Part shown: positions 5,856 through 59,162 of the stretch, in pieces
Position numbering within the stretch: the first letter of the stretch is position 1
How the letters are laid out: each line of letters starts with the position of its first letter
Origin: a candidate division WOR-3 bacterium
Lineage (GTDB): Bacteria > Hydrothermota > Hydrothermia > JBDRYB01
Assembly (NCBI GenBank): GCA_039803205.1
Contig: JBDRYB010000003.1
Span: forward strand, 80,885-144,884
Direction of reading: 5' to 3'
Length of the DNA stretch: 64,000 nucleotides
Notes under the pieces: generated by a model
Seen by the model: only the letters and a program-made list of their open reading frames with translations
Told to the model about the DNA's origin: nothing
The model's database searches: none
Made by a program: the position numbers and the translations under genes

Positions 5856-6074
5856 TCAATCGCCGCACTTCAATAATCCCAATAGCCACTCCAAAAGCCT
5901 GTCCGCTCCACGCTCAAGGTCCCTTATCTTTAAGGCTATTTCCGCTCGTTGTGCCATGAGCCTTGAATAGAGAGCGCCCGCGCGAGCATCGCCCTCAAGG
6001 GCCTGCTCCTCAATCCTCCCGAGGACAGCATCAATCCTACTCAGAGTATCCCTCAGAACCCCCACTGGGTCCAG
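5856..6074 (-). CDS. Small helical protein, candidate C-terminal part of a small terminase subunit
   Basis: Amphipathic helices around a GD turn (RIEEQALEGDARAGALYSRL). AAGGAG lies 5 nt before a CTG at 6074. Start uncertain; may be fused with the upstream ORF. Confidence 0.45.
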   Translation of the reverse strand: MDPVGVLRDTLSRIDAVLGRIEEQALEGDARAGALYSRLMAQRAEIALKIRDLERGADRLLEWLLGLLKCGD

Positions 6075-6262
6075 AGGTTCTCCTTCACGAATTCCTCTAG
6101 AGCTCGGCATTTCTCTTCGCCGAAGTGTCTCTTGGCCCAAGCCCAGCTCCGCCTCTCATAGACAATGGCCTCAGCCAGCTCGGTGAGATCCGGCCTCAGC
6201 GCTTCAAGCCTGTCCAGGAGAAGGTTTCCCTTTTCGGCGAGGATGAACCCTTCAGATAGCAT
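6053..6262 (-). CDS. Small HTH-like protein (sigma region 4-like, or TerS N-terminal domain)
   Basis: GGAGGA RBS and overlap with the upstream stop. Pattern LEALRPDLTELAEAIVYERRSWAWAKRHFG resembles an HTH. Confidence 0.5.
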   Translation of the reverse strand: MLSEGFILAEKGNLLLDRLEALRPDLTELAEAIVYERRSWAWAKRHFGEEKCRALEEFVKENLWTQWGF

Positions 6263-6599
6263 AGTCTTCCTCCAATTCGTCTAAGGACACGAAGATCATT
6301 CGCGTCGCCTTTTTCTTGAGCTTCCAAAGGTGCTTCTTCATCGCGGCAATGTAATATTGCCTGAATTCTCTGGCCTTGCCAGGGGCCCAAGACGACAAGA
6401 CCTTGAAGAGGAGGAGCCTGAGCTCCTGGGCCACATCCTCCTGTTCCGTGCCGTCCATGAAGTTAGCTGAGGCTCTCAGGATGTAGCGTTCCAGAAAGGA
6501 ATGCAGGCGGACAAAGGCTTCAGGGTCACCCATTTTGGCCTCTATGGCGGCTTTGTCTATTTCCTTGCCAGAGGGGTTCATGTTATTTAGTGAGCCCAT
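6252..6599 (-). CDS. Sigma70 region 2-only protein (phage-like sigma factor)
   Basis: AKMGDPEAFVRL, EQEDVAQELRLLL, W..GK..EFRQY, ending just after SLDE. GGAGG RBS. 115 aa. Confidence 0.7.
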   Translation of the reverse strand: MGSLNNMNPSGKEIDKAAIEAKMGDPEAFVRLHSFLERYILRASANFMDGTEQEDVAQELRLLLFKVLSSWAPGKAREFRQYYIAAMKKHLWKLKKKATRMIFVSLDELEEDYAI

Positions 6600-6675
6600 T
6601 TTTGTCCTCCGTCGTGAATAGTGTTGATTTGATCCGGGCTCAGCCCTTGCTTTATGCTTTTGAGGTTCACCATGA

Positions 6676-6715
6676 TCCGTTAAATATTATAACGGAAAAC
6701 CGTGATGAAGATCAA
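6676..6715 (-). promoter_or_regulatory. Sigma70 promoter for the sigma-like operon, overlapped by a palindromic operator
   Basis: Minus strand TTGATC (6710-6715)-18 nt-TATAAT (6686-6691). Perfect inverted repeat TCCGTTA-n7-TAACGGA at 6676-6696. Confidence 0.7.
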
Positions 6716-6728
6716 GTAGCTAACTAAT

Positions 6729-7364
6729 ATGCGTGATAAAGGGGAAACGATCGGCGCCCGTATAAAGAGGGCCAGGGAGCACCGGGGCATGTCTCAGCTC
6801 AGGCTTGCCAGACAAATAGGGGTGCCTTTCCAGCGCATCTCCGAGTGGGAGAGGGGCCTGGTTTCCCCATCCGCTCGTTACCTTAAGGCAATAGCTGATT
6901 CGCTTTCCGTTTCATTGGATTGGCTTCTTTCAGGGATGGGCCCGATGGAGAGGCCTGAAAGAAGCGATGCAATATTCCCTGTGCATCAGGTTCCTGTTTA
7001 CGGCACGGTCCCAGGGGGGCCTCCGTATGACCCAGGTGACCCCGGAGTCATGGAGGTAATAGGGGTTCCTGCGGAATACTCGGGAAGGGATGTTTTTGGC
7101 CTCGTTGTGAAGGGTGATTCCATGTCTCCAACCCTCGTGGATGGGGACAGGGTGCTGGTCGCGAGGGATATTAGGCCCAGAGATGGGCTTATCGTTGTGG
7201 TAAAAATGAACCAAGGCGAATATACCGTCAAGCGCATGAGGAGGCAAGGGGATCTCCTCATACTCATGCCTGATAATCCCAACTTTCAGCCCATTGTTCT
7301 TGCCCCTGATGATGAGGGAGAGATAGTTGGCGTCGTGGTTGAGGTGATAAGGAGGCTATTGTGA
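6729..7364 (+). CDS. CI/LexA-like repressor (XRE HTH plus S24 peptidase)
   Basis: HTH_3 motif GMSQLRLARQIGV...ISEWERG. S24 catalytic motifs GDSM (Ser) and TVKR (Lys). Confidence 0.9.
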   Translation: MRDKGETIGARIKRAREHRGMSQLRLARQIGVPFQRISEWERGLVSPSARYLKAIADSLSVSLDWLLSGMGPMERPERSDAIFPVHQVPVYGTVPGGPPYDPGDPGVMEVIGVPAEYSGRDVFGLVVKGDSMSPTLVDGDRVLVARDIRPRDGLIVVVKMNQGEYTVKRMRRQGDLLILMPDNPNFQPIVLAPDDEGEIVGVVVEVIRRLL

Positions 7365-11446: not shown

Positions 11447-12571
11447 ATGAGAAGGTTATTTGTGCTGTTCTTGTTCTTCTCAGCCTGCGCCCCTAGGCAA
11501 GCCGGAAGGGAATCGGGTTCTGGCCCCCTGAGCGTCATGCCGGAGGATGTCCTCCTTCCCAATCCGGACAGCGTCCTCCGTGAGGCTCAGGACGCCTATA
11601 ACCGAAAGGACTACCCGAGAGCGGCCTCAGCCTATCTTGACTATGTTAGCCGCAACAATCAGAACGCTATTGCCCTGTATAATCTCGCGTGCTGTTTCGG
11701 GCTTATGGGGGATTCCATCAGGGCATCCGCCTTTCTAAGAGCCGCTTGGGACGCTGGATACAGGGACACCCTGCACATTCTGAGAGATCTGGATTTTGAA
11801 CCGGTCAGGGGATCGCTGGCTTTCAAGAGCACGATGGATGGGATCATGGCCGAGGCCACCAGGGGAACCGAGGGGAAAAACAAGGTCTACCTCTCCGTTG
11901 GAACCCTGCTCCCCTGCTATGTTGTGGTGCCGGAGGATTACGATGCGCAGGAGCGCTACCCCTTGGTTATTGGCCTCCACGGCTACGGGTCGGACCCAAA
12001 GCAGTTCTCAGACCTGTTCCGGAGACCATACAAAACGGACACAACGAAAAAGTCAATGAAGATCAGCTTCATCTACGCGGTCCCATGCGCGCCCTATCCG
12101 GTGAGCCTTGGCGGGAAGCCCGGCTATTCCTGGACCCCTCCGGAGGGCGAAATAGGCAAAAGGGCTATATGGATGGACGCGGACTACATAACCTCCTTGC
12201 CTCGTGAGCTCCTCAAGTCCTACAACATTGATACCACCCGGGTCTATCTCCTTGGTTTCTCCCAGGGAGCGAGCATGGCATACACAATAGGGCTCAACAA
12301 CTACAAGCGCTTTAAGGGGATAATCGCGTTCGCGGGATGGTTTGATACCACAATGGTGTCCCTTGAGTCCATAAGAAAGGCAAAGGCAGAGGGCATGAAG
12401 GTATTCATAGCCCACGGGAAATACGACCAATCGGTGCCGGTGACCGCGAGCATGGGGGCATACAAGTTTCTGAAGGAGATCTATCTTGATGTCTGGATAT
12501 CGCAGTTTGAGGGCGGGCACGAGGTTCCGATGGAGACCCTTGAGTTCGCCATAAAGTGGATGGGGTTATGA
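11447..12571 (+). CDS. Lipoprotein with TPR region and alpha/beta-hydrolase (phospholipase/carboxylesterase) domain
   Basis: Lipobox FSAC, TPR-like YNLACC, and hydrolase motifs LHGYG, GFSQG, HGKYD and GGH. Confidence 0.85.
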   Translation: MRRLFVLFLFFSACAPRQAGRESGSGPLSVMPEDVLLPNPDSVLREAQDAYNRKDYPRAASAYLDYVSRNNQNAIALYNLACCFGLMGDSIRASAFLRAAWDAGYRDTLHILRDLDFEPVRGSLAFKSTMDGIMAEATRGTEGKNKVYLSVGTLLPCYVVVPEDYDAQERYPLVIGLHGYGSDPKQFSDLFRRPYKTDTTKKSMKISFIYAVPCAPYPVSLGGKPGYSWTPPEGEIGKRAIWMDADYITSLPRELLKSYNIDTTRVYLLGFSQGASMAYTIGLNNYKRFKGIIAFAGWFDTTMVSLESIRKAKAEGMKVFIAHGKYDQSVPVTASMGAYKFLKEIYLDVWISQFEGGHEVPMETLEFAIKWMGL

Positions 12572-12979
12572 GAGATGTTCTTGCTCACCCCTGCCAGATG
12601 CCCCCTTCATTCCCTCAAAAGCCATTACGAGGAGCCCAGCGCCCCTCATCACATCCGAAGCCGACATCCGTGCGAGCTTCTCCCGGAGCCTCTCAATCCT
12701 CCTCCTTGCCCTCCGGTAATCCGAGCACCTTTTATCCGTTGAGACATCAAGGATGGCCAGGATGTGGACGAGTCGCTCAACCGATGGCTCATCCTCCATA
12801 AGGGGAGCGAATGCCTCCTCAACCGAGCCAAATACCGCCTGTAGCCAGATTAGGGTGAGGGCGGTTGCTGGGCGAACCCTTGCGGGGCCAACCCGACCGA
12901 GCTCGCCCCTGAGAAAACCCAGGGCCAGGGCCTTCCCCCTTTCTGCCTGAACCTTTGCCTTCTTTATCAGCTCTTTCAT
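12566..12979 (-). CDS. Hypothetical protein, last gene of the head-tail operon (tail assembly chaperone position)
   Basis: ATGA overlap with the tail tube gene. Helical. Function inferred from position only. Confidence 0.5.
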   Translation of the reverse strand: MKELIKKAKVQAERGKALALGFLRGELGRVGPARVRPATALTLIWLQAVFGSVEEAFAPLMEDEPSVERLVHILAILDVSTDKRCSDYRRARRRIERLREKLARMSASDVMRGAGLLVMAFEGMKGASGRGEQEHLS

Positions 12980-13683
12980 TCTGAGACTATCCTCTCGCGT
13001 GTTATGAACCCATCCTCGTCAGAGAGAAGGATAAAACTGAGCTTCATTAGGGTTTCCCTCCCTGAGAGGAATTCCTCTGACCAAGAGGAGAGGACAGCCC
13101 TCCTCGCCTCTATTACCCTGAATGCCTGGCCCTCGGAAGACGAACGCCCCAAGGCAGGGAAAACGAGGATGAGGGCAAAATCTCTGCAAAGATAATAACG
13201 ATCCTCATCCTCCCCGTATGCGTATGAAACCAAAACCTCCTGTCCGGCGTCCTCCTCCGCAAAATAAAGAGCCCTCTCACCGGGGTCATATGAAAAGAAA
13301 CCAGCCGAAGGGCGTTCTGCCATATCAAAAACATCCCCTGAGGGAGTCTCCACGATCAGGCTCTCCGGAGCCGGCTCATCCGGAAGCCTCAGCTTGAAAG
13401 GGGACTCATCGGGAACCGTGAGCCTCAGGTCCCTCTTGAATGCCCTGGCCCCTCCGGCTCCGGTGATCGGGTTTGGGTCAAAGATCACCCTAGCAACGCA
13501 CGAGACGGTTCCGCTACCAGGGCCAGGCACAGCCGCGACGGGGAACTCATCCCTTTCGGAGTAAATGGGCCTCATAGAGTAATCAAGAAGGATGCTGACC
13601 TCCTCTAGATCAGCTATCTTCAGAGCTTGTCTCCCGCGGAGAAGGAGTTCCCCAACGCCTCCACTGTAATACCTTCTCTTCAC
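12976..13683 (-). CDS. Phage tail tube-like protein
   Basis: GVGEL...LEEVSI...IY...FPVA N-terminal pattern, inserted P.AG.FS...F..EDAGQEVLVSY.Y domain, C-terminal L.F...DEDG. Follows the neck genes. Confidence 0.65.
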   Translation of the reverse strand: MKRRYYSGGVGELLLRGRQALKIADLEEVSILLDYSMRPIYSERDEFPVAAVPGPGSGTVSCVARVIFDPNPITGAGGARAFKRDLRLTVPDESPFKLRLPDEPAPESLIVETPSGDVFDMAERPSAGFFSYDPGERALYFAEEDAGQEVLVSYAYGEDEDRYYLCRDFALILVFPALGRSSSEGQAFRVIEARRAVLSSWSEEFLSGRETLMKLSFILLSDEDGFITRERIVSE

Positions 13684-13692
13684 GATACCCCC

Positions 13693-14037
13693 TTAGAAAA
13701 AGCACCTCGCTGTGAGCCTCACCACAGCCCTTTCTCCCTCCCCCAAGGAAGTAGCGGAACACTCCGATAGCCGCATCCCTAGCCCAGCTGAGAGCGCCTG
13801 TCTTGCGTTCTCTGCAACGGCCATTGCATCAGAAAGGCAGGAATCTACAGCGATCAGCTCAAACCTGAGGAGGCCGTGCTCGTGGTCCGCTGAGCAAAGG
13901 AAGACCCTCTCCCACCTGGCCGTGTAATAGAGGCCTGGTTCTCTCGGCTCGCTCATGCTGGAATCCAGCGGTATTGCGGGACACCCTTGATTCTCAAGGA
14001 TCTCAAGCACCTCTTGGATGTAGTCAACCAGCCTCAC
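13693..14037 (-). CDS. Putative tail terminator/completion protein
   Basis: 114 aa, located between the head-closure and tail tube genes. Alpha/beta pattern ..AVAENARQAL. Confidence 0.5.
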   Translation of the reverse strand: MRLVDYIQEVLEILENQGCPAIPLDSSMSEPREPGLYYTARWERVFLCSADHEHGLLRFELIAVDSCLSDAMAVAENARQALSAGLGMRLSECSATSLGEGERAVVRLTARCFF

Positions 14038-14369
14038 CTTATCTCAAACCTCCCATTGTATTCCTCAAGCAGAAGCTCCCAGTGATCCGTCCCGAATCCG
14101 GAAAACCGCCTCACCTCTTTTACCGCAAAAGCCCTCCCCGCGCGTTCAACCCAGCGTGGTTCCTCGCTTAGGGGAGGGGTGATAGCGATGGCGCGCTCTC
14201 TCGTTTCACGGCCGTAGGGGTCATCCTCTGCCCTAAAGGAGGCCCTTCCCCAACCGCATTGAACCCTGTTCCCTCTCGTGAAGATAGCGAGTTCAGAGCC
14301 GAGGGCATCCCTTTCGCCTACTAGATGAAGGATGTAAATGCTGTCCCTCATGAGAAATCCAAAGGCCAT
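14034..14369 (-). CDS. Putative head-closure (stopper, SPP1 gp16-like) protein
   Basis: GGAGG RBS and TGATG coupling. Patterns RDALG and GRAFAVKEV...HWELLLEE. Gene order. Confidence 0.55.
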   Translation of the reverse strand: MAFGFLMRDSIYILHLVGERDALGSELAIFTRGNRVQCGWGRASFRAEDDPYGRETRERAIAITPPLSEEPRWVERAGRAFAVKEVRRFSGFGTDHWELLLEEYNGRFEIR

Positions 14370-14890
14370 CAGAGAAACCTCCTCCTGTGCGCGTATCTTA
14401 TGAGGACCCACCGGACATCATCCGAGAGAAGAGGGTTTTCCCGGAAATCTATGCCAGTCTCTCCGGATCTGAATCCGGAGATGTCCGGCCTCGGCCCCGC
14501 TAGGATCCTCGCGGCAACTCGGGCCACTGTTCTGGCAACATCATCCGGGACAGGATCCTTCGGATCGTTGTAGTAATACACCACATCAACAGGCCTTCCG
14601 GTCTCAACCCTCATCTCGCCTATGCGTTGATTGAGCCACTCCCAGGCAACATCATTGCCCTTGTCATCCTTGACCGAGACTACGCTGTGAACAGGCCAGT
14701 GGCTGAGAAGCACCCAGAACCTGATGGGATTGTGCCTCTCGGAAGCCGGTTCAGCCCTGAAATGCCTGCCCGTGAAGGCATCAATGATGTCGGAGGCCTG
14801 GCATATAGCGAGGCTTATCTCCTCATCGGTCCTATCCTGCTCCCCCAAGAGTCCCAACTCGGCCCTCACATCGCTTATTTCGCAATACAT
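14369..14890 (-). CDS. Head-tail connector (HK97 gp6/SPP1 gp15-like)
   Basis: MYCEISDVRAELG, ASDIIDAFTGRHF, VPDDV and L.RY motifs. Directly follows the capsid gene. Confidence 0.75.
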   Translation of the reverse strand: MYCEISDVRAELGLLGEQDRTDEEISLAICQASDIIDAFTGRHFRAEPASERHNPIRFWVLLSHWPVHSVVSVKDDKGNDVAWEWLNQRIGEMRVETGRPVDVVYYYNDPKDPVPDDVARTVARVAARILAGPRPDISGFRSGETGIDFRENPLLSDDVRWVLIRYAHRRRFL

Positions 14891-14906
14891 GGCTTTTTCC
14901 CTTTAA

Positions 14907-14930
14907 TTAAAAGGGGCCTTTCGGCCCCTC
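14907..14930 (-). terminator. Intrinsic terminator directly after the major capsid gene
   Basis: Minus strand GAGGGGCC-GAAA-GGCCCCTT followed by TTAATT. Confidence 0.75.
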
Positions 14931-14933
14931 ATC

Positions 14934-15947
14934 TCACTGGCCAAGGTTCTCTGCCTTGACAAAGGGGGTTATCCCTCCATCCGTGTCCCAGGCCAGCTTG
15001 CCATCTATCCGCTCCGTTATCGTTATCAGAACCTCATCCTTGAGAGCGAGGTCCTCGTCCTCCGTTATGACCCTGAGCTCAAGCCCGTTCCGTTCAAAGA
15101 TGTGGTAGAACCTCATGTCTCCGAGATATATGTCCCCATCGGCAAGGACAGAAGCCTCGTGAACAGGCCTCCCGTATACCGTCCAAGAGAAGGCTCCGGA
15201 TAGGCTAGGAACGAGAAGGGGCCTTCCTGTTGTATCCTCAAGGCCGAGAAGGAGCGCCTTCGTCGCGCTGTTCGCATACCAGGCCGCGCTCTCGCGAAAC
15301 TCAGGGGGCAGTTTCACATACATCTCGTTCAGGACATCTAGGATGTCTTTGCCGGTCGCGTCTATGACCCAAGAGGCTGGTATTGCCCCGTCTATGCCAG
15401 AGGGTTTGCCTGTTCCATCACCGAGCCAAAACGCGCTTTCCTCGGTGTATCTTATAGCCCTTCCGAGGGAATCCGCTATCTCAGCCCCAATATCAACTGA
15501 GCTGTCCTCAAGCGCCTCTACGGTCACCTTGGTGTAGGCCTTGAGCTTGTTCAGGTTCCAAGCCAGGTATCCAAAGGCTGGCTCTGATTCGGCCGGGGGT
15601 TCCGTGTCCTCCGAAACCCAGTATGCGGTGAGGGAAGGCCTGGCAACCGGAACCCTCCCCGTGGACTCAGCGACCCTATGGAGGGTTGCTCCGGGCCGGA
15701 CAGATGCCCCTAGTTCCGCGGCCTTTATGACCTCATTTGAGATACCGGTCGGGAGAAAGGGTGTCTCTCCCGAAGTTAGGGTCTTCAGCTTGGCGGAATC
15801 CCTGAAAGCCATTGCCCTTACTATATCAGCCAGACGCGTGTGAGGGTTCTCAGGCTCAGGGCTGTATGCCTTCCTTAGCCTTTCATCCATGGCTTCCCTT
15901 ACAGCCTTTCTCAGGAGCTCAGTGAGCTCCCCCTTTGTCATCTCCAT
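14934..15947 (-). CDS. HK97-family major capsid protein
   Basis: AYWVSE, KLKAYTKVTVEALEDS, AFWLGDGTGKPSGI, LEDTTGRPL, GRPV, GDMRFY and ERIDG motifs. AAGGAGG RBS. Confidence 0.93.
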   Translation of the reverse strand: MEMTKGELTELLRKAVREAMDERLRKAYSPEPENPHTRLADIVRAMAFRDSAKLKTLTSGETPFLPTGISNEVIKAAELGASVRPGATLHRVAESTGRVPVARPSLTAYWVSEDTEPPAESEPAFGYLAWNLNKLKAYTKVTVEALEDSSVDIGAEIADSLGRAIRYTEESAFWLGDGTGKPSGIDGAIPASWVIDATGKDILDVLNEMYVKLPPEFRESAAWYANSATKALLLGLEDTTGRPLLVPSLSGAFSWTVYGRPVHEASVLADGDIYLGDMRFYHIFERNGLELRVITEDEDLALKDEVLITITERIDGKLAWDTDGGITPFVKAENLGQ

Positions 15948-15949
15948 TT

Positions 15950-16468
15950 CTATTCCTCCTTTATCCTTATGGTCTCCTCCCCGAGGAGAGGGTTTATTCT
16001 CTCAAGTTCCTTCTCAAACCTCAGCATGCCGTCCCTGTATAGGGTGTTTAGCGCCTCAGGATTCGCTGGAACGGATACAGCTGAGTATTCCAGGAGTTCC
16101 TGCCGGATGTATTTCCGGCCCCCGGATGCCAAGGGTTCCCATCTGAGGGCAATGAAAGAGACGCTCCAAGCGTTGAGGACCCCCTCCCTGTAGAGCTGCC
16201 ATATCTCCTCCGCCAGGGGGGTCCTCGCGAATTTCGTTCTGGCGACAAGAGCGTCTCCAACCCTTTTTATATCCAGACAGCGCCCTATTGGCGCCTCATA
16301 CCTGTGCATCCAAAGGACAACGGGGTTCCTGAGAAAGTTCTCAAGCTCCCAGCCGGAGACCTCAACAATATCCCCGTCCCTATCCGGGTCAGATGTTGAG
16401 ATAACAGCTTCGACCGTCCTACTTTCCTCATTAACCCCGCGGGTGAAACCCGTTTTTACTACGAGCAT
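15950..16468 (-). CDS. HK97-family prohead protease
   Basis: DRDGDIV, NPVVLWMH..PIG, AWSVSF and ELLEYSAVSVPANPEA motifs. GGAGG RBS before ATG 16468. Confidence 0.93.
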   Translation of the reverse strand: MLVVKTGFTRGVNEESRTVEAVISTSDPDRDGDIVEVSGWELENFLRNPVVLWMHRYEAPIGRCLDIKRVGDALVARTKFARTPLAEEIWQLYREGVLNAWSVSFIALRWEPLASGGRKYIRQELLEYSAVSVPANPEALNTLYRDGMLRFEKELERINPLLGEETIRIKEE

Positions 16469-16568
16469 TTTTCCTCCACTCAGAGGGAATAGTGCGAATG
16501 ACACGGATGATTCTCCCTAGAAAAATGGTCGCGTGGAATTCTTTATGCTATGCTCGCTGAATGTGCGG

Positions 16569-48438: not shown

Positions 48439-49695
48439 TTACCTCTTTTTCTCCTCCACCCTGGCGTATATGGCCACTAATGCGCTAAAGCGAACCGGCT
48501 CCCTCAGGACCGGTTGGCCACCCCTGTAGATCTGAAGTTCAAATTCCCCCACGGAGTTCTCATCCGGTGCCCTCACTTGCCATAGGGCCTTCTGAACCTC
48601 CTCCCTGCCAAGGCTCACATCCCTGAAAGGGCCATCAAGAACGGAAAAACCCTTTGTCCCTGTTCTCAGAACGCACTGGAACTCACCGTGGCCTGAGAGG
48701 GTTATCTCCACGGGAAAGACGGTCCCCGGCAAAACCACGAGCGGATACCTGATTCCCTTGAGCTCAAGTATGGCATCATCCCTTATATCAGTCGGAAGCG
48801 TCATCCTGGCTTTTCTCGCCAGAGGGAGGTCCATATCACGGATGAAAACCTTTGAGAGGTAGACCGTTTCCTCACTGCTTTCCTCAAACTCCGAGAGGAA
48901 CTCCTCTGCCGAGGCATAGCGTTTGTTCGGGTCGGTAGCCATGGCCTTCTCGGCTATTCTCGCAAGCTCATCTGGAATGCCCGGATACTTCTCTTTCAGA
49001 GGGACGAACTTCCCGATGAACTTCATGGAGTAAATGGTTCTTATGTCGCCCTTGAAAGGAGGCTCTCCCGTGAGCATTTCATACATCACAGCGCCCAGCG
49101 AGTATATATCCGCCCTCGCGTCTATCGCTTTTGGGTTCCTTATGTGCTCAGGCGCGAGGTAGACAGGGCTGGGAAGGAGGTGGGTGATCTTCAGCTTCTG
49201 GACGGCTTCCCTGGCCAGCTCCCCCATACCAAAGTCAGCCAGAACAGCCACCCCGTCCTCCTTGAACATGATGTTCTGAGGCTTTATGTCCCTGTGAAGT
49301 ATGCCGTGTGAATGCGCGAACTTGAGAGCCTGTAGTATCTGCGATATGACCCTTACAGTGTCCTCAGGCGTCAGCTTGCCGGTCTCGGCGAGCATCTGTT
49401 TGAGGCTGTATGGGTAATAGTCCATCACATAATATATCCAGCGGCCATCCTTGTCCAGGTCAAGGATCCACGCCACATTAGGATGAGCCTCAAGCCCAGT
49501 CACTGCCTCAACCTCGGAAACGAACCTCCGGAGGAGCTCACGGTCTGCGGCTATTTGAGGGTAGAGAACCTTCACGACGACATTCTTGGAAAGCGCCTTC
49601 TGGAAAGCAAGATAAACCTCCATTATGGCTCCCTTTCCGATGGGGCTCTTTATCTCGTATTTGCCAGAAAGAACATCGCCCGGACTGAGCGGCAA
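48439..49695 (-). CDS. Hanks-type Ser/Thr protein kinase, soluble, with C-terminal Ig-like region
   Basis: HRDIKPQN, DFG, YLAPE and DIYSLG motifs. Confidence 0.92.
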   Translation of the reverse strand: MPLSPGDVLSGKYEIKSPIGKGAIMEVYLAFQKALSKNVVVKVLYPQIAADRELLRRFVSEVEAVTGLEAHPNVAWILDLDKDGRWIYYVMDYYPYSLKQMLAETGKLTPEDTVRVISQILQALKFAHSHGILHRDIKPQNIMFKEDGVAVLADFGMGELAREAVQKLKITHLLPSPVYLAPEHIRNPKAIDARADIYSLGAVMYEMLTGEPPFKGDIRTIYSMKFIGKFVPLKEKYPGIPDELARIAEKAMATDPNKRYASAEEFLSEFEESSEETVYLSKVFIRDMDLPLARKARMTLPTDIRDDAILELKGIRYPLVVLPGTVFPVEITLSGHGEFQCVLRTGTKGFSVLDGPFRDVSLGREEVQKALWQVRAPDENSVGEFELQIYRGGQPVLREPVRFSALVAIYARVEEKKR

Positions 49696-49699
49696 TTCA

Positions 49700-50818
49700 T
49701 CACCTCCAAAGGAATACCCAGAGCAGGAGGAATACCAGACTGAGGAGCAGAACGATTATCAAGATGAGGGCTATTATTCCGGCCCAGGGCTTTCGGCCCT
49801 CGGATGGAACGCTCCACTCTTCCTCGTATTCGTCGTCTGCGACGGGAATGAACTGGGTTATAGTGAGGTCCATGTCCTCCTGCGGCTCATAGGTCTCAGG
49901 TTCTGGCTCAAATGCTGGCTCGGGTTCCTTTTCGGCTGAGAGCTTCTTGGTTATCGGAACCTGAAGGGGCGGCTCAACCTCAACCCAGCCCGGAGGGCTT
50001 ACTATTCCGAGAGACGAGAGAACCCTGAAGAGGTCATACGCGCTCTGATAACGGTCAGAGGGCAGCTTTGAAAGCGCTTTCAGGATTACCTTCTCAAGGC
50101 TACCAGGTATGCTTATGCCCAGCGATGAGGGAAGGGGCGGCGGGTCCTTGATTATCTTGAGCTGGAGGTTAAGTATGCTCTCGTCCTTGAACGGAACCCT
50201 CCCCGTTATCATCTCGTAGAGGACAACACCGACGGAATATATGTCGGATCGCACATCAGCCCTTCCCCTCAACTGCTCCGGGGACATATAATCCGGAGTG
50301 CCTGGGGTCACGGTTGCCTTTTGCTGTCTGACTGCCTCGCCGAGGACCGCTATACCAAAATCAAACAGGTATGCCTTTCCGTCCTGGGTGCAGAGAAGGT
50401 TTGAGGGCTTGACATCCCTGTGAATCACCCCTTTGTTGTGCGCGTATGAGAGAGCGGAAAGCAGTTGATATGTGTAGAGGAGCGCCTCCTGCAGGGACAG
50501 CCTCCCGCGCTCCTTGATTATCTTATCAAGGGTCACCCCAGGGATGAACTGCATAACCAGATAGAGGAGCCCCCCTTCGTTCCCGAAATCAAAAACCTTG
50601 ACTATGTTAGGGTGATCCAGTTGCGCTGATGTCTCAGCCTCCCTGAGGAAAAGTTTGACGAAGGCTGGGTCCTCTGAGAATTGTCTTGGCAATACCTTTA
50701 TGGCAACGGGTTTCTTCAGAAAGGCGTGCTCCCCGCGATAAACAACAGCCATTCCTCCTGATGAGAGCCTTTCCAGAACCCTGTATTTTCCAGCAAATAT
50801 ACGCTCAGTTTCCTTCAT
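49700..50818 (-). CDS. Hanks-type Ser/Thr protein kinase with C-terminal TM anchor
   Basis: GGMAVVY, VAIK, HRDVKPSN, DFG and GTPDYMSPEQ motifs. Terminal hydrophobic helix. Confidence 0.94.
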   Translation of the reverse strand: MKETERIFAGKYRVLERLSSGGMAVVYRGEHAFLKKPVAIKVLPRQFSEDPAFVKLFLREAETSAQLDHPNIVKVFDFGNEGGLLYLVMQFIPGVTLDKIIKERGRLSLQEALLYTYQLLSALSYAHNKGVIHRDVKPSNLLCTQDGKAYLFDFGIAVLGEAVRQQKATVTPGTPDYMSPEQLRGRADVRSDIYSVGVVLYEMITGRVPFKDESILNLQLKIIKDPPPLPSSLGISIPGSLEKVILKALSKLPSDRYQSAYDLFRVLSSLGIVSPPGWVEVEPPLQVPITKKLSAEKEPEPAFEPEPETYEPQEDMDLTITQFIPVADDEYEEEWSVPSEGRKPWAGIIALILIIVLLLSLVFLLLWVFLWR

Positions 50819-51594
50819 TTCACGAAGATCTTGTCAAGGGAATAGACCAGCCTGGTTATGAAGTTTCCGCCCGGATCCTCAACGCTTACTATGACTCCGG
50901 TTATGTTGTCGTCGCCCCCGCGCTCGTTCGCGATCCTGATGAACTCCTCCATAGCGGCCCTAGGAGGGTTCTCAGAGAGGATGAGCTTCATCTCGTCATC
51001 GGTAAAGTGGCTGTATAACCCATCCGAGACCAGAAAGAATATGTCCCCTTTCTTCACCCAACCGGTGTAGAACCCGGGCTTGGGGTTTGGCCTTGACCCG
51101 AGGGCCTTTGTCAGGATGTTTCTGGACTTGTGGGTCCTTGCCTGCTCAGGGGTAAGATACCCTTGCTTTACGAATATCTGTGCCTGGGTATCATCCACTG
51201 TCAACTGCCTGAGATGGCCGCCTCTGAGTAGATATGCCCTCGTGTCCCCTACATGCACTATGTAATATCTGCCGCCCTTGAGAAGGAGCGCTGTAAGCGT
51301 TGTCATCGCGCCCTGAGTCGCTGGCTTTGAGTGTGCCAGCTGATAGACATATAGGGCGGCTGTCCTGTATGCCCTGAGAATGGTCCTTTCAACCGAGGAG
51401 TTTGCCTTGGATTGTTCCTTTATGAACCTTGATATTATCTCAATCGCTCCCTTGCTGGCCGCGTCGCCCGCCTTCCTGCCCCCAAGGCCATCAGCTACTA
51501 TGAAAAGCCCTTGGCTGGTATCAACCAAAAACGAATCCTCGTTCCTGGTCCTTACCTTTCCGATATCCGATGAGCCAAAGGCCTTGCCCCTCAT
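50815..51594 (-). CDS. PP2C/Stp1 family Ser/Thr phosphatase
   Basis: RNED, VADGLGG, VGDTRAY, SDGL and GGDDNIT motifs. Confidence 0.94.
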   Translation of the reverse strand: MRGKAFGSSDIGKVRTRNEDSFLVDTSQGLFIVADGLGGRKAGDAASKGAIEIISRFIKEQSKANSSVERTILRAYRTAALYVYQLAHSKPATQGAMTTLTALLLKGGRYYIVHVGDTRAYLLRGGHLRQLTVDDTQAQIFVKQGYLTPEQARTHKSRNILTKALGSRPNPKPGFYTGWVKKGDIFFLVSDGLYSHFTDDEMKLILSENPPRAAMEEFIRIANERGGDDNITGVIVSVEDPGGNFITRLVYSLDKIFVK

Positions 51595-53168
51595 TTTGCC
51601 CTCTTTCTCGCAAGTGGGTTCGTTGGCTCAATCCTGGCTATCCTGCGCCAGAGCTCTGCGGCCTCGTCCAGGCGCCCGTTCTTTTCCGCCTCAAGCGCGG
51701 CCATCTCCATCTCGGCTATTGTCTTGTAATAAAGAGCCGCGGGGTCATCCGGGTTCTGGGAGAGTATCTTTTTAGCCATCTCAAGCGTGGCCTCGGGATC
51801 AGCATCCCTGTAATGCTTCTTGCGTATGGCGTAAAGCAAGGCTGTCTGGCCAGAGGGGGATTTGTCCTTGACCTCTGAGAGGGCCTTTGCGCAAGAATCC
51901 TTGAGGGAGAGGAGGCTCTCGTCCCACGGATTCGCTGACAAAGCCAGCTCAGCGTATATTACGGCTGAGGCCGGGTCCCCAGCTGAGAGGGACTTTCTCG
52001 CTTCTGCCTCGTATGTTGCTATGAAGAGCTTAGCGGTTGCCTCGTCTCTGAGACGGAGGGCCTGAGGGTTATCAGGGGCCTCAGCGAGTGCCGCGTCAGC
52101 CTCCCTGACCGAGGCCATGTAATCCCCAGCCTTGAGGTTTTCCTCCGCGTTTATGATGTGGGTCCAGAGCCTCTGGTTCAAAGACGCGACTCGGAGCCCC
52201 TCGGCTATCTCCGGGTCGTTCGGGGCCCTCTTTGAGAGAGCCTCAAAGATTGAAACTGACCTTGAGTAAAGCCTCGCCTTATCAGAAGGGGATTGAGCGG
52301 CCTCGGCCTGAACCATGAGCATGTGGGCTTGTTGTTTCCTCGCGCTCAAGGAGTTCTTGGAGAATATGACCCAGGAGGTGATTGCCAACACCCCAAAAAG
52401 GAGCGCGGCGCCAGCGCTCGCCCAGACCCATGGCCTTATCCGTGGCCTGGGCCTTGCCTCTTCCGCGAAGCCCTGAGCCTCATAGAAGAAAAGCAGCTCT
52501 GTCTTTCCCACCCTTATTACATCCCCGTGGATCAGCACCTTCTTCGGCATCACCCTTCCATTTATGAGAACAGGGTTCTTGCCGCCTATGTCCTCAACCA
52601 CGACAGAGCCGTCCTCATTCAAATAGAACTTCAGGTGGTGCCTGGAGACGAACCTGTCCGTCAGCACGAAGTCTGCCGAAAGGTCCCTTCCTAGAACGGC
52701 TGTTCCTAGTATCTCAAAGGTCTTGCCCTGATCCGGCCCCCCTGTCACCTGGAGCCTCGGGACTATCTCGGGCGGCAGCTCAAGGAACTCGGTGGGCGCC
52801 GTGTCCACCTCGTTTTGGAGATCATCCTTTGGCTCAGAGATGACGGGCGGATTTTCCTGGGATGTTTCCTGGGGCGCGGGTATCTCTATCCTGAGAGAGT
52901 ATTTGCCTATCCCTATCTCGTCATCAGGGGTTATAAACTTTGGAAGCAGCACGCGTTCTCTCCCGAGATATACCCTCGCGTTCTCGGCCGGGGCGATTTT
53001 GAACCTTCCTCCGATTTTATGAATAGTAGCCTCAAGGGGTTGGAGGCCCGGCAGGGAGACCTCAATCTCACTACCGTTGCCTATCCGGATGGAGTTGCCG
53101 TTCATCTCCCGTTCAAGGAGGGTTCCATCCGGAAATTTTACGATCAAACGCATCAGGCAGATTGCCAC
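51591..53168 (-). CDS. FHA-domain membrane protein with TPR-like C-terminus
   Basis: Degenerate N-terminal FHA, canonical FHA (LGR..VSRHH..N), TM helix and TPR helices. Confidence 0.85.
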   Translation of the reverse strand: MAICLMRLIVKFPDGTLLEREMNGNSIRIGNGSEIEVSLPGLQPLEATIHKIGGRFKIAPAENARVYLGRERVLLPKFITPDDEIGIGKYSLRIEIPAPQETSQENPPVISEPKDDLQNEVDTAPTEFLELPPEIVPRLQVTGGPDQGKTFEILGTAVLGRDLSADFVLTDRFVSRHHLKFYLNEDGSVVVEDIGGKNPVLINGRVMPKKVLIHGDVIRVGKTELLFFYEAQGFAEEARPRPRIRPWVWASAGAALLFGVLAITSWVIFSKNSLSARKQQAHMLMVQAEAAQSPSDKARLYSRSVSIFEALSKRAPNDPEIAEGLRVASLNQRLWTHIINAEENLKAGDYMASVREADAALAEAPDNPQALRLRDEATAKLFIATYEAEARKSLSAGDPASAVIYAELALSANPWDESLLSLKDSCAKALSEVKDKSPSGQTALLYAIRKKHYRDADPEATLEMAKKILSQNPDDPAALYYKTIAEMEMAALEAEKNGRLDEAAELWRRIARIEPTNPLARKRAK

Positions 53169-53542
53169 TGAGCAAGGGCCTCGGAGAGAAGCCGGCTGTA
53201 TTTCTTTAGGTAAGCGAAAAGGAGTCCCAGAGTCCCCTTTTCCCTTGTAAGGACCACATGCAGATAGAAAGAGGTGCCCTGGATTGGCGCTGTGAAGAAA
53301 TAGAACCTGGGGGTGATCCCGAGCATCTCCGTGTCGGTCTCCGGTTCGCCGAGAGCGAGAAGCGACCTTTCCTGTGCCCTCATCAGCTCAACCGAATACG
53401 CGGATGTTATGGCTATGTCATAGTCAGGGTCTCGTTTGGCCTCAGCAACTGTGAGGCCCTCCTCCCTCTCAACCAGCGCGGAGGCCACGAAACCCGGGAG
53501 TTCCTCTTTCATGGCATCCAGAAGCTCCTTTACCTTTTCCAT
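53153..53542 (-). CDS. Roadblock/LC7-like protein
   Basis: LPGFVASALV..EGL and LGL motifs, 129 aa. Confidence 0.7.
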   Translation of the reverse strand: MEKVKELLDAMKEELPGFVASALVEREEGLTVAEAKRDPDYDIAITSAYSVELMRAQERSLLALGEPETDTEMLGITPRFYFFTAPIQGTSFYLHVVLTREKGTLGLLFAYLKKYSRLLSEALAQWQSA

Positions 53543-53545
53543 GTA

Positions 53546-54640
53546 TTAAACCTCCAAAAGCAGTTTTTCCATCCTTACGGCGGATTTAACTAGCTCAACC
53601 CTGAGAAGCCCTGGGTTGACCTTTGAATCCGCGATCACCCCGACCGTGAACTCGCCTGACCTGAGCTGGCGCGTGACGCAGTTGGCCTTCTGGGTCGTGA
53701 ATAGGGCCTCGGATAGCTCGCCAACGGCGTCCCTGGCGGACGCTATTGCCCTTGAAAGCAGGGCCGCGGTAGAACCGCTCATGCTACCCAAGAGGACAAC
53801 AGGCCTCCCATCGGAATCCCATATTCCAACCCCCTCAACCCCTTCTGTCATCAAGGCTCTCAGCTCTGCCTCAAGGCCGGAGCGGACCTCATCCGGGATC
53901 CCCCTGACCTCCTCCACAAGCCCGACCGCCTCGGAGAAGCTCCAGGAATCTATGTCAAAACCAGCTGTTTCGGTGGCTTCGTCCTTTGCCGCCACAGCTG
54001 ATAGGAGGAGGTTATCGAGGGTTTTGTTTATGGTCCTCGCTTTGGTCTCAGCGCCCCTCCTCAGGCTGAAGCTTCCCCCCTCCATCTCAAGTATGGCGTG
54101 GAATGCCTCCTCGCCGGTGAGCCTTCCCAACTCCGCGTGAACCACATTGCCCTCTGAGAAATAGATGGCGCCGGAACCCACTGGACCCGAAACAGCAACA
54201 GCGGCCGTGGATTTCTCCAATGAGAGTATCTGAAGAACATCTATGAGCTTGAGGTCGCGGACAACCCCCCTGAACCCCTCCTCCCTTGCCCTGGCCACGA
54301 CGCTGAGAAACGCATCAAGATCAAAGGGCTTCTCTATGTATTCCACCGCCCCGCGCTCGGTGGTCTCGCGCATGAGCTCCTCAGAACCCCTCGCGGTCAT
54401 TACCACTGTCTTGATGTTCGGATATTTGTTCTTTGCTTCAACGATGAGGTCAAGCCCGCTCATCCCCGGCATCTTGATGTCCGTGATGAGTATGTCAACT
54501 GGCTGGGTTTGGAGGGTTGATAGGGCGTCCTCGCCAGAAAGCGCTGTGAGGACATCGTATCCAGCCTTTACGAGGGCTCTGGAAAGACCCCAGATTATGT
54601 CCTCTTCGTCATCAACGAGCAAAACCCTAGGCGCGGCCAT
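53546..54640 (-). CDS. Response regulator with DUF4388 and C-terminal roadblock-like domain
   Basis: Receiver motifs LLVDDE, TDIKMPG and KPF. DUF4388 pattern L.DVLQIL..G.IYF.EG.VVHA..GEEAF..GSF. C-terminal NPGLL. Confidence 0.85.
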   Translation of the reverse strand: MAAPRVLLVDDEEDIIWGLSRALVKAGYDVLTALSGEDALSTLQTQPVDILITDIKMPGMSGLDLIVEAKNKYPNIKTVVMTARGSEELMRETTERGAVEYIEKPFDLDAFLSVVARAREEGFRGVVRDLKLIDVLQILSLEKSTAAVAVSGPVGSGAIYFSEGNVVHAELGRLTGEEAFHAILEMEGGSFSLRRGAETKARTINKTLDNLLLSAVAAKDEATETAGFDIDSWSFSEAVGLVEEVRGIPDEVRSGLEAELRALMTEGVEGVGIWDSDGRPVVLLGSMSGSTAALLSRAIASARDAVGELSEALFTTQKANCVTRQLRSGEFTVGVIADSKVNPGLLRVELVKSAVRMEKLLLEV

Positions 54641-55970
54641 GACTGCCTCCTTTTGCTGGTTTCAAATAGACTATGAATTCAGTTCCCTTGCCTGGCTCTG
54701 ATTGGACCTCAACCATGCCGCCGTTCTCCTTGACAAGCTGATAGACAACGAAAAGCCCCAGGCCCGTCCCCCCTTCCTTGGTGGTATAAAACGGATAAAA
54801 GACCTTCTGCTGAGCCTCGGGCGGAATCCCTGGGCCCGTGTCCCTAACCTTGAGGAAGATGTAAGGTTTCCCCAGATCGGGGTTGACGATGGTGCTCTCT
54901 CCGCCCTCAATCTCTATGAGCCCGCCCCCTCGTTCCATGGCCTCTATGGAGTTGAGTATCAGGTTCATCAAGACCTGCTGCATCTGAGCGGGGTCAGCCA
55001 TGACCGAGATAGATGGGTTAACTGAGACGGTTATTCTTATGCTTGAACGCTCAGCTCGTTCCCGGAGAACACCCACTACCTCATTTACAGCCGAGAGCAG
55101 GCTAAATGGTATTGGGTGAGGTGGCCTGGGCTTGGCATAAGCAAGGAGCTTCTTTATCATCCCGTCAATTTTGTCTATCTGCTTCATTATCCTTGCCGCG
55201 TATTCACGCTTTTCTGGTTCTAGCTCCCTGTAAAGGGCCTGCGCCATGACCCTTACGCCCGCAAGGGGATTCTTGACCTCGTGCGCTATGGAAGCGGCTA
55301 TTATGCCGAGGGAGGAGAGCCTGTCCACCATCGTCATCATCTGATGCATCTTCTTTATATCAGTAATGTCCTTGAAGAGCACGGTCCATCCAACCATGCC
55401 AGGTTCATGCTTGAAGGGTTTGGCAGACATGGTGTAAAACCTGTCTTCTATCCGCACCTCTTCCTCGCTTGGAGATGACCTCCTTGCGGCTTCAAGGAGC
55501 TTTGGGATTACGGAAAGGTGTGCCTGGGCATATTTGTTAGCGTAGAGGACGCGCCCACGCCTATCCAGGAGCACAACCCCAGTATCAAGCCCCTCAAGGA
55601 TCTCCTCCGCGAGGTATGATTTGTGCCTTGGGATGAGGCTCGCCCTGAACCCCCTGCCGTATCCGGGCAATTCAACGGGTATAACCCTTAGGTGGCCGCC
55701 TATGACCACGCCCTCCTTTGTGAGCAGGGGAACCTTTACCGAGAGGATTCCCCCTGCCCTGAAAGCGGCCTCAAGCGCGGAGGATATTGCTTGCCGGTTC
55801 TGCTCTGGGAACAGATTGAGGAAGCTCTTTCCTTTGAGTTCAGCAGCTTCCCAGCCACACACATCTGCTATTTTCTTGTTCACGAATAGAACGGTAAAAT
55901 CAGGCCCTATCTCAAAAAGGGCCTCTGATGTTATGTCCAAAAGATCAACCAGCTCCTCCTTCACGCTCAA
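54627..55970 (-). CDS. Cytoplasmic PAS-domain histidine kinase
   Basis: AHEVKNPL, NLILNS, DTGPGI, PFYTTK and GTGLGL motifs. Two PAS-like domains. Confidence 0.93.
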   Translation of the reverse strand: MSVKEELVDLLDITSEALFEIGPDFTVLFVNKKIADVCGWEAAELKGKSFLNLFPEQNRQAISSALEAAFRAGGILSVKVPLLTKEGVVIGGHLRVIPVELPGYGRGFRASLIPRHKSYLAEEILEGLDTGVVLLDRRGRVLYANKYAQAHLSVIPKLLEAARRSSPSEEEVRIEDRFYTMSAKPFKHEPGMVGWTVLFKDITDIKKMHQMMTMVDRLSSLGIIAASIAHEVKNPLAGVRVMAQALYRELEPEKREYAARIMKQIDKIDGMIKKLLAYAKPRPPHPIPFSLLSAVNEVVGVLRERAERSSIRITVSVNPSISVMADPAQMQQVLMNLILNSIEAMERGGGLIEIEGGESTIVNPDLGKPYIFLKVRDTGPGIPPEAQQKVFYPFYTTKEGGTGLGLFVVYQLVKENGGMVEVQSEPGKGTEFIVYLKPAKGGSHGRA

Positions 55971-56566
55971 CTCTGTTTCACCCCCGATTTCTTTATTATG
56001 TCCTTGAGGACATCCTTGGTTATGAGGTCAAGGGTCTGGAACACCCCTATCCCGTTTATTGCCACTGATTCAACATGCGGCGCGTTCCACTTGTTCAGCT
56101 TCGCCTCAAGCTCGGTTACGGGTAGGGCGTCAGATGCATCGCGCTTGTTATACTGCATAACCAAGGGGAGACTCTCAATTGGATTGCCGTAGTCCCTGAG
56201 GGTTTGGACCATCTCAACGAGTATCTGCAGGTTTGATTCCATTCTGCTCGCCGATGAATCAGCGACATATACTATGCCGTCAGCTCCCTTTAGGACCAGG
56301 CGCCTGGATGCCTTGTAGAAGAACTGGCCTGGGACAGTGTAAAGGTGAAAACGGACCCTGAAGCCTCCGGGCAAGTTTATCTCAACGGGAAGGAAGTCAA
56401 AGAAAAGGGTTCGTTCGCCCTTTGTGTCAACAGAGACCAGCTCGCCCCTGTGGTTTGGATTTAATTTATCAAAGATATACTTGAGATTGGTGGTTTTACC
56501 GGATAGCGCTGGGCCGTAATAGACTATCTTGCAGTTTATTTCCTTCTTTAGGCTATCTATCAGCAT
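55967..56566 (-). CDS. mglA: MglA-family small GTPase
   Basis: KIVYYGPALSGKTTN, ERTLFFDF, YTVPGQ and NKRD motifs. Confidence 0.95.
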   Translation of the reverse strand: MLIDSLKKEINCKIVYYGPALSGKTTNLKYIFDKLNPNHRGELVSVDTKGERTLFFDFLPVEINLPGGFRVRFHLYTVPGQFFYKASRRLVLKGADGIVYVADSSASRMESNLQILVEMVQTLRDYGNPIESLPLVMQYNKRDASDALPVTELEAKLNKWNAPHVESVAINGIGVFQTLDLITKDVLKDIIKKSGVKQS

Positions 56567-56570
56567 CGCA

Positions 56571-57850: not shown

Positions 57851-57872
57851 GCGTTCCGGCACTATTTGCTTT

Positions 57873-59162
57873 GTGCCATATGTCCCAAAAGGGCTCCTTG
57901 AGAAGGTAAAACTAGCAGTATTAAGGCTAAGGGCGGATCCGGTCTTCTTCGCGGAGAGCGTCTCCGGGTTTAGGTTCAACCAGTCCCAGAGAAGGGTGTT
58001 CCTTCTTTCAGGAAGGGTGAGGGTTAGGCTCGCCGGGAGGCGATTTGGAAAGACCCTCCTCTCAGCGCTTGATCTCCTTCACTATGCCATAACCCGTCCT
58101 GGCAGTAAGTCCCTGATCGTAGGTCCATCCCTGGATCAGGCGAGGATATACTTTGATTATTTCAGGGATTGGACAGCCTCCTGTCCTCTCTTGGAGTATC
58201 TGATTTTGGAGGATAAGCATTCGCCCTTCCACGAGATAAGCCTCAGGAACGGATCCGTGATAACATCCAGGTCAACATCCAGAGGTGGAAGGTTCATAAG
58301 GGGGCGCGGATATGACAGGATAACGGTTACAGAGGCTGGTTTTGTCCCTGACGAGGTCTATTACGCGGCTCTGAGGCCAGCCCTACTCCAGAACCCGAGG
58401 GCCAAACTGGATTTTGAGGGAACCCCTTGGTCAAAGACATCCTTTCTATACGAGCTTTTCACGAAGGGGCTCGCTGACGGGGAGTATTACTCTGCCATAA
58501 GGGCTACCAGCTACGAAGCCCCCCACATATCCAAGGATGAGCTGGAAAGGATAAAGGCCGAGGTGCCAGAATACTACTTCTCATGTGAGTTTCTCGCTGA
58601 GTTCCCTGAGGATGACGAGGCAGTATTTCCTCAGGCCATCGTCCTCAGAGCGGTTCAGGACTACCTCCCGGCCGCCAGGCCATTCCCAGGCCACATCTAC
58701 AGCATGGGGGTTGACCTGGCGAAGCTCCACGACTACACGGTCATAATAATCCTAGATGTCTCCGAGAAACCTTGGAGGATAACCGAGTTCCACAGGTTCA
58801 GGGGAAGGGCATACGCGGAGGCATCTGAGCTAATAAACGCGCTCAGGGCCAGATACAGGGCCAGGGTGGTGATTGATGCGACTGGAGTGGGGGAAGCGGT
58901 TGCCGAAAGGGTTCCTGGCTCATACCGGGTCGTGATAACCGCGCAGAGGAGAGAGGAGATGATCGCGCGATTGAGGCTCGCTCTTGAGACCGGTTCCCTG
59001 ATCCTTCCGGGATCAAACATGATCTTGCTTGAGGAGCTTAAGCATTTCAGAGAAAAGGGCCAGAGAGGATTCCACGACGATTGCGTTTTTGCCCTCGCGC
59101 TCGCTGTGTGGGGAGCGGGGAAAGGGACCGGATGGGCAAGCTGGCGGACCGGGAACATTTGA
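57873..59162 (+). CDS. Phage terminase large subunit
   Basis: Walker A GRRFGKT, Walker B region RG.GYDRITVTEA, GTP coupling motif, nuclease motifs GVDLAK.HDYT, IDATGVG and HDD.V.ALALA. Confidence 0.92.
   Translation: MPYVPKGLLEKVKLAVLRLRADPVFFAESVSGFRFNQSQRRVFLLSGRVRVRLAGRRFGKTLLSALDLLHYAITRPGSKSLIVGPSLDQARIYFDYFRDWTASCPLLEYLILEDKHSPFHEISLRNGSVITSRSTSRGGRFIRGRGYDRITVTEAGFVPDEVYYAALRPALLQNPRAKLDFEGTPWSKTSFLYELFTKGLADGEYYSAIRATSYEAPHISKDELERIKAEVPEYYFSCEFLAEFPEDDEAVFPQAIVLRAVQDYLPAARPFPGHIYSMGVDLAKLHDYTVIIILDVSEKPWRITEFHRFRGRAYAEASELINALRARYRARVVIDATGVGEAVAERVPGSYRVVITAQRREEMIARLRLALETGSLILPGSNMILLEELKHFREKGQRGFHDDCVFALALAVWGAGKGTGWASWRTGNI

Follow-up and report, generated by a model that had tools for sequence, protein, structure and literature searches.

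A putative sigma-domain-2-only factor and a seven-base motif link scattered phage-derived loci in a WOR-3 bacterium

A small protein of a candidate division WOR-3 bacterium, consisting of sigma domain 2 only, likely directs host RNA polymerase to a -10-only promoter, CACTATT, at six loci, and would thereby switch on a domesticated, probably gene transfer agent (GTA)-like particle. We hold this reading with moderate confidence. It is built on motif placement and conservation, protein fold, gene content and purifying selection, from which we infer all regulatory steps and the function of the particle.

The window, the stretch of 64,000 nucleotides that was analysed, belongs to contig C3 of a 2.32 Mb genome that is 96% complete (G000). 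It was compared with two genomes of the same WOR-3 genus (G001 and G002), from which G000 differs by a dS of 0.7-2.0 (pS 0.47-0.70, i.e. ~30-53% of synonymous sites conserved). The four runs in which this DNA occurs come from a single study of hot-spring metagenomes, and none of the runs listed for it is an RNA dataset.

CACTATT precedes six scattered phage-derived loci

The initial annotation had noted CACTATT upstream of a sigma-like gene, a prohead protease gene and the gene of the terminase large subunit (TerL), and near 43922 and 56569, the remaining two copies in the window; all of these coordinates were correct. Six loci are preceded by the motif, namely the mini-sigma operon, the head-neck-tail cluster and TerL, and, outside the window, a portal gene, a 118-aa gene and a tail-tip/holin operon:

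6617..6623, minus strand: CACTATT, predicted -10-only promoter of the sigma gene, 17 nt before the ATG at 6599
16488..16494, minus strand: CACTATT before the head-neck-tail operon, 19 nt before the ATG at 16468; exact in G000, G001 and G002
57860..57866, plus strand: CACTATT before TerL, 6 nt before the GTG at 57873 (CACTAT plus 7 nt), with no ribosome-binding site (RBS); leaderless geometry
12566..16468, minus strand: prohead protease, HK97-type capsid and head-tail adaptor genes (Pfam and PHROG) and four downstream genes, likely neck/tail; same order in G002
57873..59162, plus strand: solitary terminase large subunit (Terminase_6N/6C, phrog_2; dN/dS 0.10-0.11)
C3:40941, 40 kb outside the window: portal gene (phrog_2662, E 2e-64), motif upstream
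Contig C4: 118-aa gene with a weak tape-measure match (E 0.005), located through the motif
End of contig C5 into start of C3: 227-aa gene heading the tail-tip/holin operon, located through the motif

Six is the number of motif-marked loci; the scan for phage genes without the motif covered part of the proteome. The loci are spread over 140 kb of contig C3 and over C4 and C5. Each is flanked by host genes, with housekeeping neighbours in the three genomes. This differs from an intact temperate prophage, in which the phage genome is contiguous and integrase and replication genes are linked to it. Within the head-neck-tail cluster the label of tail tube is weak. In the tail-tip/holin operon, genes for a protein of 129 aa and a holin-like one of 67 aa (phrog_689, E 1e-4) are accompanied by others for a LamG/PKD protein, a protein of 1,054 aa and a permuted-papain-like protein; its weak matches and gene order suggest tail-tip and lysis functions. 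The end of C5 and the start of C3 overlap by 127 identical bases, so that the two contigs join inside this operon. The window also contains, at 48439-57029, an operon with a roadblock and an MglA-like GTPase gene, a sensor kinase, a response regulator, an FHA-TPR protein, a PP2C phosphatase and two Ser/Thr kinases.

The window holds five copies of CACTATT versus 3.60 +/- 1.73 in shuffles, a chance level of which the initial annotation had warned, and the whole genome holds 113. The motif lies 2-35 nt before a possible start in 7 of 2,124 genes, versus a mean of 8.1 for 210 permutations of its letters; these genes were called by a simple in-house script, which missed the 118-aa and 227-aa genes. 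Five of the seven are the sigma-like, prohead protease, TerL and portal genes and a replication initiator gene on contig C11; the other two are host genes whose TTG starts are doubtful. Marked genes are not in excess; it is their identity that counts.

Although the bare count is at chance level, comparison of the genomes indicates that CACTATT marks a real regulon of scattered phage-derived loci. The motif is kept without change in all 18 upstream regions (six loci in three genomes of one WOR-3 genus), including all 12 orthologous regions of G001 and G002, in agreement with the conservation that had been predicted. Over the 30 nt upstream of it, 16 of the 18 pairwise comparisons give an identity of 10-43%. 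Since the heptamer has stayed exact while most flanks diverged, its placement and conservation are not a product of chance. The portal gene provided an out-of-sample test, with a background near 0.003 per gene (~7/2,124), unlike the 118-aa and tail-tip loci, which were found via the motif and have weak phage matches. Portal, tape measure and lysis genes had been forecast as further targets; the portal (E 2e-64) and, by weak matches, the tail-tip/holin operon answer to this forecast, but a full-length tape measure was not identified. The ten genes tested have dN/dS values of 0.07-0.19 (0.07-0.11 for TerL, portal, protease and capsid), which together with the conservation of the motif indicates that the gene set is maintained and not decaying.

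The geometry of the TerL copy had been likened to that of leaderless host genes, a likeness that the whole genome bears out: a TATAAT-like hexamer lies exactly 6 nt before the start codon in 131 genes and at 7 nt in 49, with about 2-20 genes at most other spacings. TerL keeps this 6-nt spacing, and its GTG, in G000, G001 and G002, with flanks 10-20% identical, and the 6-nt spacing recurs for RepA (2/2; see below). This places the TerL motif at about -13 to -7; a register with CACTAT at -12 to -7 could also apply. Beyond the heptamer, a purine at -1 is found in 17 of 18 upstream regions and C at -2 in 12 of 18. No column upstream of position -2 is conserved in the 18 regions and no -35 element is shared among the loci, as the initial annotation had judged from three. 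By sequence, then, this is a single -10-region box without a -35, as in T4 gp55/gp33, its -10 position being taken from the leaderless spacing. A second shared string, AGCATAAAG, is present at 6650-6658 and 16541-16549 and had been noted there, at different spacing. We rejected it as a second promoter element; it is absent from the protease upstream regions of G001 and G002, and its sharing is therefore coincidental.

The 115-aa protein resembles sigma domain 2

The sigma gene heads a conserved operon:

6252..6599, minus strand: sigma-domain-2-only protein of 115 aa by profile and fold, SigH/ComX-like region 2, HTH_16-like; proposed reader of CACTATT
6606..6610, minus strand: GGAGG, ribosome-binding site of the sigma gene
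6053..6262, minus strand: 69-aa gene that overlaps the stop codon of the sigma gene and may encode a partner subunit; conserved in 8/8 loci, 52-78% identity, dN/dS 0.12-0.19
5856..6110, minus strand: ~83-aa helical protein, possible small terminase; 8/8 loci, weak DUF5681 match (E 0.02-0.06) in 3/8 members

Searched directly, the 115-aa protein gave no Pfam match at E<=0.001 and no PHROG match at E<=0.1, the best being weak matches to HTH_16 (E 0.003) and Sigma70_r2 (E 0.014). A profile built from 13 homologues detected 37 matches among 1.84 billion proteins. Twenty-five of these were scanned: 24 carry Sigma70_r2 and the 25th HTH_16, and many appear SigH/ComX-like by reading of the alignment. 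The Atlas ranking gave HTH_16 and Sigma70_r2 clusters scores of 0.95-0.97. The D-x-x-Q-E of region 2.2 is invariant, and the gene is under purifying selection (dN/dS 0.08-0.09).

The predicted model (pLDDT 65) has four helices over residues 11-97, and sigma domain 2 structures top both fold searches. Foldseek returned no match at E<=0.001, its best being SigC (2o7g, E 0.18, probability 0.98). Ranked by Z, SigB came first (Z 9.1) and 7d7d_F, chain F of the T4 gp45-dependent activation complex, second (Z 8.0; rmsd 4.0 over 93 residues, tied with other sigma chains), and 14 of the best 15 matches are sigma or transcription-complex chains. A Z of 8-9 is common for helical bundles and such scores are modest alone; they agree with the profile, and by the two together we assign the protein to sigma domain 2 of the Sigma-70 family. 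The frame stops after 113-116 codons in 8/8 loci, leaving no domain 4 on the same polypeptide as single-chain group 3/4 sigmas have, so that the earlier view of a protein with region 2 only stands. From this assignment and the placement of the motif, the protein likely reads CACTATT.

Of 272 phylum genomes, the three with close matches to the sigma protein all belong to the genus of G000, and six metagenome loci have close matches as well; candidate division WOR-3 is the source label of 2 of 12 homologues. No relative was detected in viral contigs, in cultured phages (tblastn) or in the 269 other phylum genomes. More distant metagenome matches (L020-L036, 31-46% identity) have no motif at the corresponding position, and those inspected (L020, L022-L024) were rejected as relatives, being other sigma-like proteins in other settings. 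Close capsid matches are found in 2 of 272 phylum genomes, again of this genus; in G001 the contig ends within the protease gene. The best TerL match among cultured phages is 33% identical (Meiothermus phage MMP17), which suggests an origin separate from RcGTA and CcGTA. A capsid match in G172 was considered as a sign of wider distribution and set aside: it lies in an ordinary-looking contiguous prophage without CACTATT on the coding strand. This prophage-like region (L053, G172:C12) belongs to another family of the WOR-3 phylum, and its regulation appears unrelated.

The 69-aa gene has, in 8/8 loci, the adjacent, coupled position expected for the partner gene of a two-subunit sigma. As sigma region 4, however, its product was unsupported by hhalign (probability 0.1-0.4%), by a local sigma-4 HMM (best score matched by 4-8% of shuffles) and by a PDB sequence search; the alignment was shallow, and the scores cover 3 of 8 members. 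The Atlas (best 0.85, unnamed viral clusters) and longer fused forms gave no support either. With sigma-4 homology unsupported, the split-sigma reading rests on gene position, and we put the chances that the 69-aa protein is a second, gp33-like subunit at about even. The ~83-aa protein, third gene of the operon, may be a small terminase subunit (TerS).

Control region of the sigma operon

Upstream of the sigma gene lie the elements of a predicted genetic switch:

6686..6715, minus strand: housekeeping sigma70-type promoter TTGATC-N18-TATAAT, predicted priming promoter; 10/12 consensus match, conserved in an 8-locus alignment
6677..6695: inverted repeat CCGTTA-N7-TAACGG over that -10, candidate operator of the repressor; conserved with spacers of 5 or 7 nt
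6729..7364, plus strand: divergent CI/LexA-like repressor, HTH_3 and peptidase S24 (Pfam; phrog_4, E 3e-46)

A repressor gene divergent from the sigma gene is also present in G001, G002, L014-L016 and L018. The inverted repeat is less perfect in G001, L018 and L019, and no exact second intergenic operator site was found; the other genomic copy of CGTTA-N5-7-TAACG is intragenic. The predicted cleavage site of the repressor reads Pro-Gly-Gly in G000 and Pro-Ala-Gly in G001 and G002, residues that make its induction by DNA damage plausible, and RecA is encoded in all three genomes.

CACTATT lies seventy bases downstream of the housekeeping promoter. It precedes the sigma gene in 7 of the 8 loci with upstream sequence, in support of the positive feedback proposed by the initial annotation, which might make expression bistable, but is absent from L019, the most distant relative (52% identity), which has kept the housekeeping promoter and lacks the motif-bearing segment. 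This layout predicts a repressor-controlled priming promoter and a second promoter for positive feedback. The repressor with its palindrome, the coupled 69-aa gene and the motif-bearing replication initiator (Rep) genes described below go beyond the earlier description.

Replication initiators and other copies of the motif

Among the motif copies of the relatives we encountered 200-220-aa winged-helix proteins with replication-initiator matches (phrog_678, E about 1e-5). A protein search gave two copies each in G001 and G002, two of the four being found independently of the motif:

G002:C1:77316-77981, G001:C373:3128-3784, G002:C99:61-660 and G001:C309:3487-4092: solitary Rep genes, CACTATT 6 or 8 nt before the start
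G000:C11:48276-52100 (L007:3207-7100): integrase-excisionase-Rep element at a tRNA-Ser gene

An AT-rich inverted repeat lies just 5' of each of the four G001/G002 genes. The Rep of G000 on contig C11 is a 424-aa distant relative (23% identity, pairwise E 7e-4, best tblastn E 1.5e-5) with CACTATT 17 nt before its ATG, so that the motif precedes 5 of 5 family members in three genomes. The genes are variably present, at four different sites over the three genomes: one pair lies between gltX and mraZ, where G000 has none, and the other two have different neighbours. In the C11 element the integrase frame runs into tRNA-Ser and three 22-nt iteron-like repeats follow the Rep gene; searched as a query, this element was not found in G001 or G002. 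Contig data, which cannot settle the point, gave chromosome-level depth, no excision joint and no amplification for it. The Rep genes resemble small mobile cassettes that have been hooked up to the switch, and the C11 element is possibly a satellite listening to the mini-sigma. Such cassettes may serve the host, as in Bartonella run-off replication, or may exploit the particle.

Near the sigma locus of G002 (C21:2708-3743, L009) genes for a Panacea-domain antitoxin and a putative toxin have been inserted, with CACTATT and GGAGG 16 nt ahead of the ATG. No G000 homologue of this insertion was found, and its frame is broken by a short duplication close to the 5' end, possibly an artefact of assembly. 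In G000, as in G001, the 3' end of tRNA-Met yields a CACTATT 8 nt ahead of an RlpA-like lytic transglycosylase gene (G000:C20:1417-1881). We excluded this copy from the regulon because it overlaps the tRNA end and reads CACTATA in G002; it is probably incidental, the alternative being a co-opted lysis gene. Among the part of the G001 and G002 copies that was checked, including 16 stretches, no further conserved members emerged other than the Rep genes.

Proposed switch and alternative explanations

In the reading that we favour, the CI/S24 repressor would sit on the palindrome over the housekeeping promoter until RecA-stimulated self-cleavage, or noise, lifts repression. The first sigma molecules would then read CACTATT before their own gene and lock the cell on, the coupled 69-aa protein possibly acting as the gp33-like subunit. 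Capsid, portal, terminase, tail-tip and holin genes would be expressed as a consequence, and solitary Rep genes on the same motif would amplify their neighbourhood during induction.

The same sigma switch might instead serve a PBSX-like killer or decoy particle, an alternative to which we give a modest chance. PBSX is governed by an Xre repressor and lies in one contiguous locus, and its sigma, Xpf, has domains 2 and 4. Here, too, a repressor gates a dedicated sigma for a defective phage, whereas the loci are scattered and the sigma has domain 2 alone. The likeness of a CI/S24 repressor with a dedicated sigma to PBSX, whose Xpf has been connected with death following DNA damage (PMC10141391), favours a killer, as do the 1,054-aa tail-tip protein, lectin-like fibre and holin-like gene found in one operon. 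However, the motif-marked loci include no sheath or long tape measure, and TerL, portal, protease and capsid are intact and under purifying selection, which implies DNA-filled heads.

A somewhat smaller probability attaches to the possibility that a host sigma (RpoS-like or ECF) reads CACTATT, or that an activator such as the 69-aa protein binds it, with the mini-sigma as a mere regulon member or competitor. The genome encodes four other sigma factors (RpoD, one RpoS-like and two ECF), and known GTAs pair activators with host sigma, as GafY with RpoD (PMC11150451). Yet the motif belongs to no stress or housekeeping regulon, its only company besides phage-type genes being two weak TTG-start genes (of 2,124) and the one tRNA-end copy. 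It also stands at the -10 position without a second site, and the gene set itself encodes a dedicated -10-reading domain.

That the motif works on RNA, in processing or translational control, is improbable. Strand specificity and, in most loci, a place immediately 5' of the RBS speak for it; against it, the distance to the start ranges between 6 and 36 nt over the six loci, and the shortest spacings match the leaderless -10 spacing of the host and so put the motif outside the mRNA. Decaying prophage fragments that carry a heptamer by chance would fit its frequency in window and genome but are refuted by the 12/12 conserved orthologous regions, the low dN/dS of the ten genes and their intact frames.

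Discussion

The proposed dedicated sigma appears to work like T4 late transcription and like autoregulated split sigmas, a likeness in layout drawn from sequence. In the T4 late system (PMC2988020), the sigma is reduced to domain 2, virion genes have a single -10-region box without a -35, and the partner gp33 does without likeness to sigma-4 sequence. The domain-2-only sigma, the lone -10 box, the virion genes and the second-best fold match (7d7d_F) are shared with gp55/gp33. Unlike its T4 counterpart, the present system is chromosomal and seemingly domesticated, autoregulated and repressor-gated, with a SigH/ComX-like sequence and a box of 7 nt versus 8 bp, and no gp33 or sliding-clamp counterpart was identified here.

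Sig7-8 of Tn916 is described (10.64898/2026.10.01.756105) as a subpopulation switch with positive feedback from its own promoter. Like Sig7-8 and SigO-RsoA, the 115-aa protein is a small HTH_16/region-2 protein encoded beside a second small gene, and the motif before its own operon suggests a positive loop and a subpopulation switch. In contrast to these systems, the partner has no detectable sigma-4 homology, no -35 is conserved, and at least 6 unlinked virion loci replace one ICE promoter.

RcGTA and CcGTA are controlled, according to PMC9662315 and PMC11150451, by activators and antiterminators (GafA, GafYZ) together with host sigma. In both cases caudoviral head, packaging and tail genes are fixed in the chromosome at several loci, their co-regulation here being suggested by the motif; unlike in these GTAs, TerL and portal are solitary and the regulator would be a sigma. 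Two of the six features by which PMC9662315 defines GTA viriforms are recognised, from genes alone: caudoviricete-derived virion proteins (capsid, protease, adaptor, TerL, portal) and, in its genomic part, endogenization at multiple loci (six loci, three genomes). Bearing on vertical inheritance, the set is known from three genomes of one genus, selection on it is purifying, and several loci have the same neighbours in different genomes. The spread over 140 kb of C3, plus C4 and C5, bears on whether a particle could package the whole set. A literature search that took in few subscription papers and no supplements returned nothing on WOR-3 with gene transfer agents or with prophage terminase, and no GTA run by a dedicated sigma.

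In Bartonella, BaGTA couples run-off replication to a replication initiator that is co-regulated with particle genes at separate loci (10.1101/2024.11.20.624540). Phage-type Rep genes apparently co-regulated with particle genes at separate loci are found here as well; unlike in BaGTA, they are variably present, at four sites in three genomes. Tentatively, and with less confidence than in the switch itself, we picture an independently evolved GTA with a T4-style half sigma and a non-sigma-4 partner, whose easily acquired one-box promoter let the set scatter and let origin-plus-initiator cassettes plug in, amplify their neighbourhood and bias packaging.

If the favoured reading is true, a dedicated domain-2-only sigma with a 7-nt promoter is a different solution from that of GTAs run by activators and antiterminators, and it explains the lone terminase and portal genes, for which seven bases gained would mean entry into the regulon. 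One 115-aa protein, one 69-aa protein and one motif would make a small system for asking what minimal sigma suffices for initiation. Rep genes that bear the motif hint at a counterpart of Bartonella run-off replication or at hitch-hikers of a GTA, and the motif may serve as a sequence handle on scattered phage-derived machines that cluster-based searches overlook.
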